A stretch of 64,000 nucleotides of DNA from Escherichia phage EO1, in the sequence record OQ223305.1; one strand, 5' to 3'. Shown piece after piece: positions 20,998 through 50,569 of this stretch; position 1 is the stretch's first letter, and every line of letters begins with the position of its first letter. Below the pieces are notes generated by a model. It did no database searches and was not told the origin of the DNA. It was given only the letters and a program-made list of their open reading frames with translations. Position numbers and translations under genes: made by a program.

Positions 20998-21957
20998 ATG
21001 ATTACCGTAAATGAAAAAGAACACATTCTTGAACAGAAATATCGTCCATCTACTATCGATGAATGTATTCTTCCCGCCTTTGATAAAGAAACCTTTAAAT
21101 CTATTACAAGTAAAGGTAAGATTCCACATATTATTCTTCATTCTCCTTCTCCAGGAACAGGTAAAACAACTGTAGCGAAAGCATTGTGTCATGATGTAAA
21201 TGCTGATATGATGTTTGTAAATGGATCAGACTGTAAAATTGATTTCGTTCGTGGTCCTTTGACTAATTTTGCTAGCGCCGCTTCATTTGATGGGCGTCAA
21301 AAAGTAATCGTTATTGATGAATTTGACCGTTCAGGTTTAGCAGAATCTCAGCGACATCTTCGTTCCTTTATGGAAGCTTATAGTTCAAACTGTAGTATTA
21401 TTATTACTGCTAACAATATTGATGGTATTATTAAACCTCTCCAGTCACGCTGCCGAGTTATTACATTCGGTCAACCGACCGATGAAGATAAAATTGAAAT
21501 GATGAAGCAGATGATTCGTCGATTGACTGAAATCTGCAAGCATGAAGGAATTGCTATAGCTGATATGAAAGTTGTAGCAGCTTTGGTTAAAAAGAATTTT
21601 CCTGATTTTCGTAAAACTATTGGCGAGCTCGATAGTTATTCATCTAAAGGTGTTTTGGATGCTGGTATTTTATCACTGGTTACTAACGATCGTGGTGCTA
21701 TTGATGATGTTCTTGAGTCTCTCAAAAATAAAGATGTTAAACAACTCAGAGCTTTAGCACCAAAATATGCGGCTGATTATTCGTGGTTCGTTGGTAAACT
21801 TGCCGAAGAAATCTATTCGCGTGTAACTCCACAAAGTATTATTCGTATGTACGAAATTGTCGGCGAAAATAATCAGTATCATGGTATTGCAGCTAATACT
21901 GAATTGCATCTAGCTTATCTTTTCATTCAGTTAGCATGTGAAATGCAGTGGAAGTGA
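20998..21957 (+). CDS. 44: clamp loader large subunit gp44 (319 aa)
   Basis: ATG 20998 (six-frame start at 20983 is TTG); Walker [11 protein letters not shown]; 319 aa as in T4. Confidence 0.9.
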
Positions 21958-22970: not shown

Positions 22971-25667
22971 ATGAAAGAATTTTATATCTCTATTGAAACA
23001 GTCGGAAATAACATTGTTGAACGTTATATTGATGAAAACGGAAAGGAACGTACTCGTGAAGTAGAATATCTTCCAACTATGTTTAGGCATTGTAAGGAAG
23101 AGTCAAAATACAAAGACATCTATGGTAAAAATTGTGCTCCTCAAAAATTTCCATCAATGAAAGATGCTCGAGATTGGATGAAACGAATGGAAGACATCGG
23201 TCTCGAAGCTCTCGGTATGAACGATTTTAAACTCGCTTATATCAGTGATACATATGGTTCAGAAATTGTTTATGACCGAAAATTTGTTCGTGTAGCTAAC
23301 TGTGACATTGAGGTTACTGGTGATAAATTTCCTGACCCAATGAAAGCTGAATATGAAATTGATGCTATCACTCATTACGATTCAATTGACGATCGTTTTT
23401 ATGTTTTCGACCTTTTGAATTCAATGTATGGTTCAGTATCAAAATGGGATGCAAAGTTAGCTGCTAAGCTTGACTGTGAAGGTGGTGATGAAGTTCCTCA
23501 AGAAATTCTTGACCGAGTAATTTATATGCCATTCGATAATGAGCGTGATATGCTCATGGAATATATTAATCTTTGGGAACAGAAACGACCTGCTATTTTT
23601 ACCGGTTGGAATATTGAGGGATTTGACGTTCCGTATATCATGAATCGCGTTAAAATGGTTCTCGGTGAACGTAGTATGAAACGCTTCTCTCCAATCGGTC
23701 GAGTAAAATCTAAATTAATTCAAAATATGTACGGTAGCAAAGAAATTTATTCTATTGATGGCGTATCTATTCTTGATTATTTAGATTTGTACAAGAAATT
23801 CGCTTTTACTAATTTGCCGTCATTCTCTTTGGAATCAGTTGCTCAACATGAAACCAAAAAAGGTAAATTACCATACGACGGTCCTATTAATAAACTTCGT
23901 GAGACTAATCATCAACGATACATTAGTTATAACATCATTGACGTAGAATCAGTTCAAGCAATTGATAAAATTCGCGGGTTTATCGATCTAGTTTTAAGTA
24001 TGTCTTATTACGCTAAAATGCCTTTTTCCGGTGTAATGAGTCCTATTAAAACTTGGGATGCTATTATTTTTAACTCATTGAAAGGTGAACATAAGGTTAT
24101 TCCTCAACAAGGTTCGCACGTTAAACAGAGTTTTCCGGGTGCATTTGTATTTGAACCTAAACCAATTGCTCGTCGATATATTATGAGTTTTGACTTGACG
24201 TCTCTGTATCCGAGCATTATTCGTCAGGTTAACATTAGTCCTGAAACTATTCGTGGTCAGTTTAAAGTTCATCCAATTCATGAATATATCGCAGGAACAG
24301 CTCCTAAACCGAGTGATGAATATTCTTGTTCTCCGAATGGATGGATGTATGATAAGCATCAAGAAGGTATCATTCCAAAGGAAATCGCTAAAGTATTTTT
24401 CCAGCGTAAAGACTGGAAAAAGAAAATGTTCGCTGAAGAAATGAATGCCGAAGCTATTAAAAAGATTATTATGAAAGGCGCAGGGTCTTGTTCAACTAAA
24501 CCTGAAGTTGAACGATATGTTAAGTTCAGTGATGATTTCTTAAATGAACTATCGAATTATACTGAATCTGTTCTCAATAGTTTGATTGAAGAATGTGAAA
24601 AAGCAGCTACACTTGCTAATACAAATCAGCTGAACCGTAAAATTCTTATTAACAGTCTTTATGGTGCTCTTGGTAATATTCATTTCCGTTACTATGATTT
24701 GCGAAATGCTACTGCTATCACAATTTTCGGCCAAGTTGGTATTCAGTGGATTGCTCGTAAAATTAATGAATACCTGAATAAGGTGTGTGGAACTAATGGC
24801 GAAGATTTCATCGCAGCAGGTGATACTGATTCGGTATATGTTTGTGTAGATAAAGTTATTGAAAAAGTAGGTCTTGACCGCTTTAAAGAACAAAATGATT
24901 TAGTTGAATTCATGAATCAGTTCGGTAAGAAAAAGATGGAACCTATGATTGATGTTGCATATCGTGAGTTATGTGATTATATGAATAACCGCGAGCATCT
25001 GATGCATATGGACCGTGAAGCTATTTCTTGTCCTCCGCTCGGTTCAAAGGGTGTTGGTGGATTTTGGAAAGCGAAAAAACGTTATGCTCTGAACGTTTAT
25101 GATATGGAAGATAAGCGATTTGCTGAACCGCATCTAAAAATCATGGGTATGGAAACTCAGCAAAGTTCAACACCAAAAGCAGTACAAGAAGCTCTTGAAG
25201 AAAGTATTCGTCGTATTCTTCAGGAAGGTGAAGAGTCTGTCCAAGAATATTACAAGAACTTCGAGAAAGAATATCGTCAACTTGACTATAAAGTTATTGC
25301 TGAAGTAAAAACTGCGAACGATATAGCGAAATATGATGATAAAGGTTGGCCAGGGTTTAAATGCCCGTTCCATATTCGCGGTGTGCTAACTTATCGTCGA
25401 GCTGTTAGCGGTCTGGGTGTAGCTCCAATTTTGGATGGAAATAAAGTAATGGTTCTTCCATTACGTGAAGGAAATCCATTTGGCGACAAGTGCATTGCTT
25501 GGCCGTCGGGTACGGAACTTCCAAAAGAAATTCGTTCTGATGTACTGTCTTGGATTGACTACTCAACTTTGTTCCAAAAATCGTTTGTTAAACCGCTTGC
25601 GGGCATGTGTGAATCGGCTGGTATGGACTATGAAGAAAAAGCTTCGTTAGACTTCCTGTTTGGCTGA
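22971..25667 (+). CDS. 43: DNA polymerase gp43 (family B), 898 aa
   Basis: 898 aa; exonuclease and polymerase motifs (DIE, YGDTDS); uninterrupted. Confidence 0.95.
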   Translation: MKEFYISIETVGNNIVERYIDENGKERTREVEYLPTMFRHCKEESKYKDIYGKNCAPQKFPSMKDARDWMKRMEDIGLEALGMNDFKLAYISDTYGSEIVYDRKFVRVANCDIEVTGDKFPDPMKAEYEIDAITHYDSIDDRFYVFDLLNSMYGSVSKWDAKLAAKLDCEGGDEVPQEILDRVIYMPFDNERDMLMEYINLWEQKRPAIFTGWNIEGFDVPYIMNRVKMVLGERSMKRFSPIGRVKSKLIQNMYGSKEIYSIDGVSILDYLDLYKKFAFTNLPSFSLESVAQHETKKGKLPYDGPINKLRETNHQRYISYNIIDVESVQAIDKIRGFIDLVLSMSYYAKMPFSGVMSPIKTWDAIIFNSLKGEHKVIPQQGSHVKQSFPGAFVFEPKPIARRYIMSFDLTSLYPSIIRQVNISPETIRGQFKVHPIHEYIAGTAPKPSDEYSCSPNGWMYDKHQEGIIPKEIAKVFFQRKDWKKKMFAEEMNAEAIKKIIMKGAGSCSTKPEVERYVKFSDDFLNELSNYTESVLNSLIEECEKAATLANTNQLNRKILINSLYGALGNIHFRYYDLRNATAITIFGQVGIQWIARKINEYLNKVCGTNGEDFIAAGDTDSVYVCVDKVIEKVGLDRFKEQNDLVEFMNQFGKKKMEPMIDVAYRELCDYMNNREHLMHMDREAISCPPLGSKGVGGFWKAKKRYALNVYDMEDKRFAEPHLKIMGMETQQSSTPKAVQEALEESIRRILQEGEESVQEYYKNFEKEYRQLDYKVIAEVKTANDIAKYDDKGWPGFKCPFHIRGVLTYRRAVSGLGVAPILDGNKVMVLPLREGNPFGDKCIAWPSGTELPKEIRSDVLSWIDYSTLFQKSFVKPLAGMCESAGMDYEEKASLDFLFG

Positions 25668-26890: not shown

Positions 26891-27631
26891 ATGATTAGTG
26901 ACTCTATGACAGTTGAAGAAATCCGTCTTCATTTGGGGCTTGCATTAAAAGAAAAAGATTTCGTAGTTGATAAAACCGGTGTTAAAACTATTGAAATTAT
27001 TGGCGCATCATTTGTAGCAGATGAACCGTTTATTTTTGGCGCTCTTAATGATGAATACATTCAGCGTGAACTTGAATGGTATAAATCTAAGAGCTTGTTT
27101 GTTAAAGATATTCCAGGTGAAACACCAAAGATTTGGCAGCAGGTAGCATCTTCTAAAGGCGAAATTAACTCGAATTATGGTTGGGCTATTTGGTCAGAAG
27201 ATAACTATGCCCAGTATGATATGTGTTTAGCTGAACTTGGTCAAAATCCTGATTCTCGGCGTGGTATCATGATTTATACTCGTCCATCCATGCAATTTGA
27301 CTACAATAAAGATGGTATGTCAGATTTCATGTGTACTAATACAGTACAGTACCTGATTCGTGATAAGAAAGTCAATGCGGTTGTTAGCATGAGAAGCAAT
27401 GATTGCTGGGCAGGCTATCGTAATGATTATGCTTGGCAAAAATACGTACTAGATAAATTAGTATCTGATTTGAATGCAGGCGACCCATCGCGGCAATATA
27501 AAGCAGGTTCTATTATATGGAACGTTGGAAGTCTTCATGTGTACGAAAATCAGTTTTATTTAGTTGACCATTGGTGGAATACTGGCGAAACTCATATTGT
27601 GAAAAAAGACTATAAAGGTGAGTGGAAATGA
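26891..27631 (+). CDS. 42: dCMP hydroxymethylase gp42 (246 aa)
   Basis: 246 aa; thymidylate-synthase-like sequence matching T4 gp42 as recalled (MISDSMTVEEIRLHLGLALKEKDF…). Confidence 0.9.
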   Translation: MISDSMTVEEIRLHLGLALKEKDFVVDKTGVKTIEIIGASFVADEPFIFGALNDEYIQRELEWYKSKSLFVKDIPGETPKIWQQVASSKGEINSNYGWAIWSEDNYAQYDMCLAELGQNPDSRRGIMIYTRPSMQFDYNKDGMSDFMCTNTVQYLIRDKKVNAVVSMRSNDCWAGYRNDYAWQKYVLDKLVSDLNAGDPSRQYKAGSIIWNVGSLHVYENQFYLVDHWWNTGETHIVKKDYKGEWK

Positions 27632-28470
27632 TTCAATTCGTAATTCCAAGTTATCAGCGTGTCGGGGCAGTTTCTGCCCTTGATATGTTTCCGACTAATT
27701 ATGAACCCCATATTGTAGTGCGTGAACATGAAGAAAAAGCTTATTATGATGCCTATGGGTCTAGAGCTAAAATTATAACTATTCCTGACGATGTAAATGG
27801 AATTGCTGGTACTCGTAAAGCAATTACTGATATGTATGCAGGTCAACGAATCTGGATGATTGACGATGATACTACTATTCGTATGAGTTCAATGCGAAAA
27901 AGAGATGACCGTCGTTGTGTAGATAAAGTCAATCAATTAACCCGTGAACAGTTCTATGAATTGATTCAATACGTCGAAGATGCCATGGATTGCGGGTATT
28001 ATCATGGCCATGCTCGTCTACCTATTTTTAAAATTACTTCATCTTGGGGTAATTATCGTGAAAATTCATATGGATTCACGAATACATGGTATGACCTCGG
28101 AAAACTTACGACAGAACAAATTGGGTATGGAAAAATTGATTTATGCGAAGATATGTATGCATTTCTCAATTTAATTAATCAAGGTTATCCGCATTTGGCC
28201 TTGTTCAAATATCTGGTTGTATCTGGAAAAGCACAAGCTCCTGGCGGGTGTAGTTCAATTCGTAGTAATTCTAAACATAATAGAGCGCTTGAGCAAATCA
28301 ATAGAGAGTTTCCAGAGCAAGCTCGTTGGAAAACGTCGAATATTGAAAAACGAAAATCGTTGGGTGAAGAAGACGAGCCATTAAAGGTTCTTCGTATGTG
28401 TGTTTCGCGCAAAGAAAAATCAGAAGCATTTCATAAGTTTAATGCTATTCATCCGATAGCAGTTGATTAA
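27628..28470 (+). CDS. glycosyltransferase with DxD (GT-A-like) motif at the beta-gt locus; possible beta-alpha-glucosyl transferase
   Basis: ATG 27628 overlaps the gp42 stop; motif IWMIDDDTTI; sequence does not resemble T4 beta-gt as recalled. Confidence 0.55.
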   Translation: MIQFVIPSYQRVGAVSALDMFPTNYEPHIVVREHEEKAYYDAYGSRAKIITIPDDVNGIAGTRKAITDMYAGQRIWMIDDDTTIRMSSMRKRDDRRCVDKVNQLTREQFYELIQYVEDAMDCGYYHGHARLPIFKITSSWGNYRENSYGFTNTWYDLGKLTTEQIGYGKIDLCEDMYAFLNLINQGYPHLALFKYLVVSGKAQAPGGCSSIRSNSKHNRALEQINREFPEQARWKTSNIEKRKSLGEEDEPLKVLRMCVSRKEKSEAFHKFNAIHPIAVD

Positions 28471-28525
28471 TGCCTAAATTTATTGTGTTATAATTACTCT
28501 ATCTTTAACCAGTGAGGAAAATATA

Positions 28526-28582
28526 ATGATGCCTATGGAAAAAATGAATGTCTATTGTAGATTTAAAATCCCGTTTGATTAA
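28526..28582 (+). CDS. upstream ORF (18 codons) overlapping the uvsX start
   Basis: ATG 28526 sits 8 nt after GAGGAA, whereas the uvsX ATG (28548) has no good SD; uORF MMPMEKMNVYCRFKIPFD ends 34 nt into uvsX in another frame. Confidence 0.3.
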   Translation: MMPMEKMNVYCRFKIPFD

Positions 28583-29729
28583 AGCTTCCACTTCTAAAAT
28601 GACTGCTGAACTGACTACATCTAAATTCTTTAATGAAAAGGATGTAATCCGTACAAAAATTCCAATGCTGAATATTGCTATTTCTGGTGCGATTGATGGC
28701 GGCATGCAGTCTGGTTTAACTATTTTTGCAGGTCCTTCTAAACACTTTAAATCAAATATGTCTTTGACTATGGTTGCGGCATATTTGAACAAATATCCTG
28801 ACGCGGTTTGTCTATTCTATGATAGCGAATTTGGTATTACTCCAGCTTATTTGCGATCCATGGGAGTTGACCCGGAACGAGTAATTCATACGCCAATCCA
28901 GTCAGTTGAACAGCTGAAAATTGATATGGTGAACCAGCTTGAAGCTATTGAGCGGGGTGAAAAAGTTATTGTATTCATCGACTCAATTGGTAATATGGCT
29001 TCTAAGAAAGAAACGGAAGATGCCTTGAATGAAAAATCTGTGGCAGATATGACTCGTGCTAAATCACTGAAGTCATTATTCCGTATTGTTACTCCTTACT
29101 TTAGCATTAAAAATATTCCATGTGTTGCGGTTAACCATACAATTGAAACAATTGAAATGTTTAGTAAAACCGTGATGACAGGCGGTACAGGCGTAATGTA
29201 TTCGGCTGATACTGTATTCATTATCGGTAAACGTCAAATTAAAGATGGTTCTGATCTTCAGGGGTATCAATTTGTTCTAAATGTAGAAAAATCTCGTACC
29301 GTTAAAGAAAAAAGTAAATTCTTTATTGATGTTAAATTTGACGGTGGTATCGATCCTTATTCTGGATTGTTAGATATGGCTCTAGAATTAGGATTTGTAG
29401 TAAAACCTAAGAATGGTTGGTATGCTCGTGAATTTCTTGACGAAGAAACCGGCGAGATGATTCGCGAAGAAAAATCTTGGCGTGCAAAAGATACTAACTG
29501 CACTACATTCTGGGGTCCTTTATTTAAGCATCAACCATTCCGAGATGCTATTAAACGTGCTTACCAGTTAGGTGCTATTGATAGTAATGAAATTGTTGAA
29601 GCTGAAGTTGATGAATTGATTAACTCAAAGGTTGAAAAATTTAAATCTCCAGAAAGTAAAAGTAAATCAGCAGCTGATTTAGAAACTGACCTCGAACAGT
29701 TAAGTGATATGGAAGAATTTAATGAGTAA
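28548..29729 (+). CDS. uvsX: recombinase UvsX (RecA-like), 393 aa
   Basis: Near-identical to T4 UvsX as recalled (…DLKSRLIKASTSK…, GPSKHFKSN Walker A). Confidence 0.9.
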   Translation: MSIVDLKSRLIKASTSKMTAELTTSKFFNEKDVIRTKIPMLNIAISGAIDGGMQSGLTIFAGPSKHFKSNMSLTMVAAYLNKYPDAVCLFYDSEFGITPAYLRSMGVDPERVIHTPIQSVEQLKIDMVNQLEAIERGEKVIVFIDSIGNMASKKETEDALNEKSVADMTRAKSLKSLFRIVTPYFSIKNIPCVAVNHTIETIEMFSKTVMTGGTGVMYSADTVFIIGKRQIKDGSDLQGYQFVLNVEKSRTVKEKSKFFIDVKFDGGIDPYSGLLDMALELGFVVKPKNGWYAREFLDEETGEMIREEKSWRAKDTNCTTFWGPLFKHQPFRDAIKRAYQLGAIDSNEIVEAEVDELINSKVEKFKSPESKSKSAADLETDLEQLSDMEEFNE

Positions 29730-48391: not shown

Positions 48392-50569
48392 ATGATTATC
48401 ACCACTGAAAAAGAAACAATTCTTGGTAATGGTTCTAAATCAAAAGCATTTAGCATCACAGCATCTCCTAAAGTATTTAAAATTCTGTCATCTGATTTGT
48501 ATACAAACAAAATTCGCGCAGTAGTCCGTGAATTGATTACCAACATGATTGATGCTCATGCACTTAATGGAAATCCTGAAAAATTTATCATACAAGTTCC
48601 TGGACGTTTAGATCCACGATTTGTTTGCCGAGATTTTGGTCCGGGTATGAGTGATTTTGATATTCAAGGTGATGATAATTCTCCTGGGTTGTATAATTCA
48701 TACTTCAGTTCATCTAAGGCTGAATCTAACGATTTCATTGGCGGATTTGGTTTAGGTTCTAAATCTCCGTTTAGTTATACTGATACGTTTAGTATTACTT
48801 CGTATCATAAAGGTGAAATTCGTGGTTATGTAGCTTACATGGATGGTGATGGTCCACAGATTAAACCTACATTCGTAAAAGAAATGGGTCCAGATGATAA
48901 AACTGGTATTGAAATCGTAGTTCCAGTTGAAGAAAAAGACTTTAGAAACTTTGCTTATGAAGTTTCTTATATCATGCGACCGTTCAAAGATTTGGCTATC
49001 ATTAATGGTCTTGACCGCGAAATTGATTATTTTCCGGATTTTGATGACTATTACGGTGTAAATCCAGAAAGATACTGGCCAGATCGCGGTGGATTATATG
49101 CTATCTATGGCGGTATTGTTTATCCTATCGATGGTGTTATTAGAGACCGTAACTGGCTAAGCATTCGCAATGAAGTGAATTACATTAAGTTTCCAATGGG
49201 TTCACTTGATATTGCTCCATCACGTGAAGCTCTTTCATTGGATGATCGCACTCGTAAAAATATTATTGAACGAGTTAAAGAGCTTAGTGAGAAAGCATTT
49301 AATGAAGATGTAAAACGATTTAAAGAATCTACATCTCCCCGTCACACATATCGTGAATTGATGAAGATGGGGTATTCTGCTCGAGATTATATGATTAGTA
49401 ATTCAGTCAAATTCACGACTAAAAATCTGTCATATAAAAAGATGCAGAGTATGTTTGAACCTGACAGTAAGTTATGTAATGCAGGCGTGGTGTATGAAGT
49501 AAATCTTGACCCTCGACTGAAGCGCATTAAGCAAAGTCATGAAACATCAGCCGTTGCGTCAAGTTATCGTCTGTTTGGTATTAATACAACAAAAATTAAT
49601 ATCGTTATTGATAATATTAAAAATCGTGTTAATATTGTCCGTGGATTAGCACATGCGTTAGATGATAGTGAATTTAATAACACTTTAAATATTCATCACA
49701 ATGAGCGTCTTCTGTTTATTAATCCGGAAGTAGAATCGCAGATTGATTTACTACCTGATATTATGGCAATGTTTGAAAGTGATGAAGTTAACATTCATTA
49801 TTTGTCAGAAATTGAAGCTTTAGTAAAAAGTTATATTCCAAAGGTAGTTAAAAGTAAAGCTCCTCGTCCTAAAGCTGCTACAGCATTTAAGTTTGAAATT
49901 AAAGACGGGCGCTGGGAAAAAGAGGAATTATTTACGCTCACATCAGAAGCAGATGAAATTACTGGTTATGTAGCGTATATGCATCGTTCTGATATTTTCT
50001 CTATGGATGGTACTACATCACTTTGTCATCCATCTATGAATATTTTGATTCGTATGGCTAATCTTATTGGCATTAATGAATTTTATGTTATTCGTCCGCT
50101 TTTACAGAAAAAGGTAAAAGAACTCGGTCAGTGCCAATGTATTTTTGAAGCTTTACGTGATTTATATGTAGATGCTTTTGATGATGTAGATTATGATAAG
50201 TACGTAGGTTATTCAAGTTCAGCTCAACGATATATTGATAAAATTATCAAGTATCCTGAACTAGATTTTATGATGAAGTACTTCAGTACAGATGAAGTTT
50301 CTGAAGAATATACACGACTCGCTAATATAGTTAGTTCATTGCGTGGTGTATATTTTAATGGTGGAAAAGATACCATCGGTCATGACATCTGGACAGTAAC
50401 TAATCTTTTTGATGTATTATCAAATAATGCTTCAAAAAACAGTGATAAAATGGTTGCTGAGTTTACCAAGAAATTCCGTATTGTTTCCGACTTCATCGGA
50501 TATCGCAACTCTTTAAGTGATGATGAAGTTTCCCAAATCGCTAAAACTATGAAGGCCCTTGCGGCCTAA
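48392..50569 (+). CDS. rIIA: rIIA protein (725 aa)
   Basis: 725 aa as T4 rIIA; N-terminal GHKL-like region; followed by rIIB. Confidence 0.85.

Follow-up and report, generated by a model that had tools for sequence, protein, structure and literature searches.

In phage T4, genes 38 and 25 possess a split ribosome binding site (RBS), in which a hairpin brings a distant Shine-Dalgarno (SD) sequence next to the AUG, and genes 44 and rIIA are classical targets of the RegA repressor. The regA gene has been detected in every T4 relative examined to date (PMC2993671). Translational coupling between adjacent genes is most efficient where the upstream frame stops at -4 to +3, and it is an established suggestion that a short upstream ORF (uORF) can deliver ribosomes to the gene that follows (PMC12548453). 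Larger overlaps couple poorly; the coat and lysis genes of the RNA phages fr and MS2 are coupled at -38 and -50 nt, respectively, and in fr the ribosomes reach the lysis start backwards from the stop (PMC12548453).

Here, the region upstream of uvsX in Escherichia phage EO1 (OQ223305.1) was compared with these systems, using a window (the whole stretch of DNA that was analysed) of 64,000 nucleotides. The region corresponds to the 42 / beta-alpha-glucosyltransferase / uvsX / 40 / 41 segment of a T2/T6-like Tequatrovirus. With a 341-nt query, the best DNA match was phage PE37 (99.4%), and query coverage of 80% or more was obtained for 453 phage records. The features of relevance, with positions in the window, are as follows.

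26891-27631: dCMP hydroxymethylase ORF
27622-28470: glucosyltransferase ORF
28471-28477, + strand: MotA-box-like TGCCTAA, separated by 11 bp from the -10 hexamer of a predicted middle promoter
28489-28494, + strand: -10 hexamer TATAAT, conserved in nearly all leader types
28500-28510, + strand: 5′ block of the leader, TATCTTTAACC, conserved in leader alignments
28512-28519, + strand: SD1, the upstream SD of the uORF, GTGAGGAA, its TGAG invariant in 19 leader types
28522-28527, + strand: another perfect TATAAT, sharing bases with the uORF ATG, at approximately +22 to +27 of the predicted transcript
28526-28582, + strand: uORF of 18 codons plus stop (28580-28582), encoding MMPMEKMNVYCRFKIPFD
28535-28540, + strand: SD2, ATGGAA containing the weak uvsX SD GGA (28537-28539), inside the uORF and 8 nt before the uvsX ATG
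28545-28547, + strand: TGA in the uvsX frame, abutting the uvsX ATG and excluding any N-terminal extension
28548-29729, + strand: uvsX, encoding a RecA-like recombinase of 393 amino acids, with genes 40 and 41 next downstream

The first-pass annotation had proposed that a well-spaced SD upstream of uvsX serves an 18-codon ORF that lies in a different frame and ends inside uvsX, and both elements can be read directly in the sequence: GAGGAA occupies 28514-28519, with GAGG 8 nt ahead of the ATG at 28526, and the stop codon at 28580-28582 leaves an overlap of 35 nt (28548-28582) with uvsX, which is in the +1 frame. The uORF codons are ATG ATG CCT ATG GAA AAA ATG AAT GTC TAT TGT AGA TTT AAA ATC CCG TTT GAT TAA, with further in-frame ATGs at 28529, 28535 and 28544. 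The accompanying claim that uvsX is devoid of an SD stands in so far as its start is weak, but is overstated, since a conserved GGA (28537-28539) is located 8 nt upstream of the ATG; the motif (A/T)(T/A)GG(A/T)A is kept 7-9 nt ahead of the uvsX ATG in leader alignments, and the Ac3 phage record annotates the GGA as an RBS. A further claim, that the N-terminus of UvsX matches that of T4, proved incorrect, the T4 protein starting MSDLK and the EO1 protein MSIVDLK. Owing to the in-frame TGA at 28545-28547, position 28548 is the sole start that retains the conserved UvsX N-terminus; the TGA (or TAA) at the equivalent position is the uORF stop codon in several other genera.

The strengths of the two SD sequences differ. 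The calculated duplex with the 3′ end of 16S rRNA amounts to -6.5 kcal/mol for the GTGAGG of SD1 and to -3.3 kcal/mol for SD2, against a median of -5.8 kcal/mol (quartiles -6.3 and -3.3 kcal/mol) for gene starts in the window, based on 86 crude gene calls, which places the uORF site in the strongest quarter of window genes and uvsX at the edge of the weakest. GTGAG is found 5-9 nt ahead of eight of the 80 window gene starts where 0.7 would be expected, an approximately 11-fold enrichment, GTGAGAAAAATATG (gene 38916) and GTGAGGAAAATATG (gene 1121) being examples; by this measure GTGAG is evidently a bona fide SD variant of EO1. SD1 in most other genera consists of just GAG (-2.7 kcal/mol), and is no stronger than SD2. 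Other window sequences that nearly match the SD1-ATG motif include ordinary gene starts (26098, 42025, 42773, 44775 and 56524), and were set aside.

Two other frames in the vicinity were noted. The GTG at 28512 opens GTG AGG AAA ATA TAA, in which the TAA overlaps the upstream ATG as TAATG; no SD was found ahead of this GTG in the window sequence, and the frame is probably there by chance. An antisense ORF of 95 codons with a TTG start (28505-28792), on the opposite strand inside uvsX, was considered, and no support for it was found. At the other end of uvsX (window 29704-29729), the ATG of gene 40 (29722) overlaps the end of the recombinase gene by 8 nt and has ATGGAA 8 nt upstream, the same motif as precedes uvsX, so that the uvsX-40 junction is likewise a candidate for coupling in combination with a weak SD of the GGA type.

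The leader is preceded by a predicted MotA-type middle promoter. The consensus for such promoters comprises (a/t)(a/t)(a/t)TGCTTtA at 12+/-1 bp from a -10 element, TAtaaT (PMC2988021), and the EO1 sequence agrees with it at five of seven positions in TGCCTAA and fully in TATAAT, with 11 bp between the two. In relatives, nGCTnTA stands exactly 12 bp ahead of TATAAT at the same location, and the Lutter record annotates a promoter at this site. By the -12 to -7 convention used for middle promoters (PMC2988021), transcription would start at the A at 28501, upstream of SD1, and the short upstream ORF has both an SD and a start codon of its own. A scan for sigma70 promoters and terminators returned nothing on the + strand, which is to be expected given that middle promoters have no -35 element. 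The 5′ block TATCTTTAACC has no second exact copy in the window. The second TATAAT (28522-28527) is retained in the form TAT(A/T/G)AT in most genera, and might act as a -10-like element within the initially transcribed region. Neither a -35 element nor a TGn motif was found upstream of it, nor a MotA box at the correct spacing, the best CTTTA match being 14-15 bp off.

The distribution of the leader was examined among 80 UvsX loci from IMG/VR and ten named phages. A homologous module with an upstream ATG at -19 to -27 was present in 23 of the 25 distinct leader types, its elements following in the order nGCTnTA, 12 bp, TATAAT, leader TATCTTTAACC, SD1-ATG block, 6-7 variable nt, (A/T)(T/A)GG(A/T)A, 7-9 nt and uvsX ATG, where the SD1-ATG block has the consensus (G/A)TGAG(G/A)A(A/G)AA(T/C)AT(A/T)ATG. 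The module occurs in Tequatrovirus, Jiaodavirus, Moonvirus, Winklervirus, Dhakavirus, Mosigvirus, Kanagawavirus and a Slopekvirus-like Klebsiella phage, as well as in phages VR26 (Gaprivervirus) and PG7 (Karamvirus) and, probably, in Acinetobacter phage 133, and is absent from the Krischvirus, KVP40-like, Aeromonas and cyanophage UvsX genes. Muldoonvirus PS2 has kept the leader with the upstream ATG replaced by ATTG, possibly providing a TTG start. In PS2 and PTP25 the leader is retained behind a terminator hairpin in place of a promoter, which argues for a function in the RNA.

Alignment of 19 leader types revealed the TGA of SD1 and the AT of the upstream ATG to be invariant and the G of the ATG nearly so, with the 6-7 nt that follow the ATG varying freely. 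The 48-nt leader is 73-92% identical to that of the window in phages where fourfold-degenerate sites of uvsX are only 35-52% identical; unrelated flanks reach approximately 50-60% under the same alignment, and the gene 45 and gene 44 leaders of the same phages 54-75%. The upstream SD and ATG are, as judged from this pattern, a selectively maintained initiation site ahead of the weak uvsX start. The spacer AAAATAT and the 5′ block TATCTTTAACC are more invariant than the needs of a simple SD-AUG site would explain and this, together with a likeness to the gene 44 and rIIA sites described below, leaves room for a repressor operator.

The uORF itself is far more variable. Its frame relative to uvsX can be 0, +1 or +2, its length ranges from 6 to 32 codons and the peptide sequences differ among leader types; even a near-identical relative has one extra A in the A-run that places the uORF in another frame (L005). 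This variability in frame, length and peptide indicates that the element acts in cis as opposed to via its peptide. A peptide-dependent leader, operating by attenuation or arrest, was accordingly rejected, neither peptide nor frame being conserved. An N-terminally extended UvsX or a frameshift fusion was similarly discarded, the TGA at 28545-28547 closing the frame and the uORFs of relatives using all three frames. An in-frame fusion of uORF and uvsX was encountered in just one leader type, that of relative L026 (IMGVR_UViG_2706796082_000001, 668-700), where no stop intervenes between the upstream ATG and uvsX; the predicted product has a 9-residue N-terminal extension (MFVIFKGTK-MSD...), and SD1 is degenerate in this sequence.

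Folding of the EO1 leader yielded no stable structure (minimum free energy -8.8 kcal/mol, z +0.8), RNAalifold found 0 consensus pairs among 12 leaders, and no Rfam family reached its gathering score, the best hit (a snoRNA model, 16.5 bits against a 50-bit threshold) being noise. With neither a stable fold nor consensus pairs, a hairpin of the T4 gene 38/25 type, carrying SD1 to the uvsX AUG, was excluded. Since the leader is unstructured, the uvsX AUG should also be accessible unaided, and a version of coupling that depends upon unfolding is not needed.

Comparison with T2, T6 and T4, as the first-pass annotation had suggested, was informative. Leader and uORF are identical to those of EO1 in both T2 and T6, whereas T4 has no uORF and carries segA directly upstream of uvsX. 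The T4 segA gene ends 8 nt ahead of uvsX, which possesses its own SD in the form of UAAGGU, located 5 nt upstream of the AUG. Start sites in T4 have been placed at 23752, inside segA (PuvsX), and at 24460, in the end of b-gt (PsegA) (PMC2988021); the PuvsX box is TTGCTTAAT, with its TATAAT. Insertion of seg and mob genes has displaced existing transcription starts, segA being among the cases (PMC2988022), and the sequences indicate that T4 is without the module through displacement by segA. The T4 region shares with that of EO1 the same gene, with uvsX-40-41 downstream, and differs in the segA insertion, the location of PuvsX within it, the UAAGGU SD and the lack of a uORF. Because segA displaced the leader in T4, decades of work with this phage would not have met the element.

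Traces of the ancestral arrangement may be discerned in T4 (L001, NC_000866; minus strand approximately 4372-4238, record approximately 24371-24237). Following the b-gt stop is tatctttaaccggtggaataaATG, a relative of the first half of the EO1 uvsX leader, which opens an unannotated hydrophobic ORF of 24 codons, MLGPLLLIIGLGLFAFWDFFCYID. Next comes atcgaatagcagttgattaATG, a remnant of the 3′ end of a T2/T6-type beta-alpha-glucosyltransferase gene (window 28445-28472), and then segA, so that the b-gt/segA region looks like a mosaic that retains pieces of the earlier order. The first 120 residues of UvsX (window 28548-28907) are approximately 84% identical between EO1 and T4-type phages of the same genus that bear segA (e.g. 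RB55). SegA cuts within uvsX (PMC2988022), and co-conversion of the flank in the course of segA homing may account for this divergence.

The interpretation preferred here, which is held tentatively and at a little below an even chance, is that the uORF forms part of a conserved cis-acting leader mini-cistron that loads ribosomes onto uvsX by coupling. The mini-cistron would belong to an ancestral uvsX expression module of T-even-type phages, in which a MotA-dependent middle promoter (28471-28477 and 28489-28494) starts the mRNA near 28501, and ribosomes bind the unstructured A/U-rich leader at SD1 and the AUG at 28526, an initiation region of the type seen in real genes. They would then translate a short peptide without conserved sequence, crossing SD2 and either traversing the uvsX AUG or terminating there or nearby; the weak GGA that serves this AUG lies inside the mini-cistron. 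Terminating ribosomes would restart at uvsX, i.e. the genes would be translationally coupled, with UvsX output being set largely by the upstream site. In T4, following displacement by segA, uvsX would instead use PuvsX inside segA and its own SD.

Translation of the uORF, its positive effect on uvsX and reinitiation as the mode are presumed from the sequence comparisons. There is an inverse relation between the presence of a uORF and the strength of the uvsX SD, the median duplex energy being -5.6 kcal/mol in phages without a uORF and -3.3 kcal/mol in those with one (Mann-Whitney p ~1e-6, uncorrected for phylogeny, so that the comparison is confounded by shared ancestry); T4 represents an independent case. 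The uORF stop ends at -3, 0, +1, +8, +13, +19, +35, +47, +62 or +80 relative to the A of the uvsX ATG, and in most genera other than that of EO1 at -3, 0, +1 (UAAUG), +8 or +13, with positions near the efficient range in Jiaodavirus, Moonvirus, Winklervirus, Kanagawavirus, Dhakavirus, Mosigvirus and others. The stronger uvsX SD where the uORF is missing, the stops within coupling range elsewhere and the T4 case together favour a positive role in ribosome delivery. The suggestion made in the first-pass annotation, that UvsX translation may depend upon coupling or reinitiation, receives partial support. A/T-rich sequence will, however, provide stops near the uvsX ATG by chance, and stop position alone therefore proves nothing. 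Moreover, the EO1 stop, at +35, lies outside the -4 to +3 range and, judged by published work on coupling (PMC12548453), a 35-nt overlap is a poor geometry for reinitiation, much less efficient than the -3 to +13 stops of other genera.

The same overlap can be read in the opposite sense. If the uORF were a competitor, ribosomes that initiate at 28526 and then traverse the uvsX start would reduce and meter the synthesis of UvsX, and a frame running 35 nt into uvsX, poorly suited to reinitiation, would be appropriate to that end. The distance from the upstream ATG to that of uvsX is held at 22-24 nt in most leader types, which is within one ribosome footprint, meaning that the two start sites cannot be occupied simultaneously. 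The accessibility of uvsX without help in an unstructured leader, and the conservation of SD2 in a weak form, are consistent with competition also. Nevertheless, a weak SD alone would limit output, such that a conserved competitor seems superfluous, and UvsX is needed in large amounts during T4 infection. Furthermore, phages without the uORF have stronger, not weaker, uvsX SDs, and in many genera the stop is situated exactly where coupling is most efficient; competition is consequently regarded as unlikely, albeit a possibility that merits some weight. Very little probability attaches to the idea that the uORF is a functionless chance ORF in an A/T-rich leader, conserved by recent ancestry or by recombination of the module. 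Short ORFs are frequent in A/T-rich sequence, and the leader does seem to travel as a module, two relatives (L012 and L032) sharing ATG(A/G)TGCCTATGGAAAAA with the window despite UvsX identities of 86% and 70%. However, the upstream SD and ATG have remained invariant, amid variable neighbouring columns, where synonymous sites have reached saturation, and an upstream ATG with a good SD and an ORF reaching the gene start is seen at just two of 80 window gene starts, uvsX and one trivial 3-codon case. On this sequence evidence, the uORF is not a chance ORF.

Whether delivering ribosomes or not, the leader could feasibly serve as the operator for an RNA-binding regulator, most plausibly the RegA repressor, with the upstream SD and ATG being retained as components of the binding site, an explanation that can be combined with coupling and that is considered improbable, though not markedly so. 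It accords with the conservation of primary sequence as opposed to structure, including a spacer, AAAATAT, that the ribosome does not require, and with the resemblance of the uORF site, UGAGGAAAAUAUAAUGAU, to the gene 44 and rIIA sites (AAUGAGGAAAUUAUGAUU at 20998 and 48392). The uvsX leader is also more conserved than the gene 44 and 45 leaders, and regA has been found in all T4 relatives examined (PMC2993671). On the other hand, the specificity of RegA is loose and A/U-rich, meaning that the resemblance may be compositional, and no report of RegA-sensitive uvsX was found in the literature searched. An elaboration of this scheme, in which the leader is a translational operator of T-even type, i.e. 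an obligatory ribosome-entry mini-cistron at which RegA or another repressor times and limits UvsX synthesis via coupling, and which T4 lost through segA, is speculative and carries a low probability; were it true, then UvsX regulation in most T-even phages would differ from the lessons of T4. Finally, the conserved block might act at the level of DNA or transcription, with the second TATAAT functioning as a sigma70 pause or second promoter and the ATG being incidental. The hexamer at +22 to +27 is perfect, and in most genera only its fourth position varies (A/T/G), as would be expected of a -10 hexamer. Yet no -35, TGn or correctly spaced MotA box lies ahead of 28522-28527, conservation extends to the G of the ATG and to the TGAG located 9 nt before it, which a -10 element does not explain, PTP25 has kept the ATG and GTGAG with a hexamer of TATAGA, and the leader persists behind terminator hairpins without the main promoter. 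A transcription-level role is thus thought quite improbable.

Although the class of mechanism is already known, the uvsX uORF itself is without description in the literature searched, in which no ribosome profiling or proteomics for T2/T6-type phages was found either. No uORF feature is annotated among the phage-collection matches listed, nor in the 14 annotated regions examined, and in terms of annotation the present analysis marks a conserved non-coding or micro-coding element that is unlabelled in the phage records examined. The amount of UvsX, the central recombinase in T4-type phages, is important to recombination-dependent replication and repair. Studies of uvsX expression have used T4, which turns out to be the exception, segA having replaced the ancestral promoter and leader, and the case exemplifies the capacity of a homing endonuclease to rewire translational control in a neighbouring gene. 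If the leader does set UvsX output, then it would constitute an instance, natural and stable in evolution, of a bacteriophage uORF that delivers ribosomes.

Compared with the systems outlined at the outset, the EO1 leader has in common with the split RBS of T4 genes 38 and 25 a good SD approximately 30 nt upstream of a T-even start codon, but has no hairpin; instead, an ATG correctly spaced from the SD is conserved. The RegA-sensitive regions of T4 genes 44 and rIIA share UGAGGAAA(U/A)U..AUGAU with the uORF site, differing in that the spacer is three nt longer in EO1. With regard to these regions in the window, gene 44 (20998) and a 725-amino acid gene at 48392, which we take to be rIIA, have an identical initiation region, AATGAGGAAATTATGATT; that of gene 44 reads ATGAGGAAATT in Moonvirus and the L010 lineage, and nearly the same, ATGAGGAAAATT, in phiE142.

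The coat-lysis pairs of fr and MS2 resemble EO1 (-35) in that the upstream frame ends tens of nt inside a poorly initiating downstream gene. In those phages, however, the upstream frame constitutes an essential gene of full length and the lysis start is masked by RNA structure, whereas EO1 has an 18-codon leader and no predicted structure. The uvsX leader also resembles ribosome delivery by uORFs and the engineered version of this, the two-cistron or bicistronic design expression cassette. The uvsX leader differs from the bicistronic cassette in being natural, phage-borne and conserved across genera, in the putative nature of the dependence of uvsX upon it, in the EO1 stop being located 35 nt inside uvsX and in having no inhibitory structure to unfold. 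It shares with these designs a short leader cistron that has an SD and an AUG of its own, a main SD embedded within that cistron, a peptide of no relevance and, in most genera, a stop codon at, next to or overlapping the main AUG (UGA-AUG, UAAUG).
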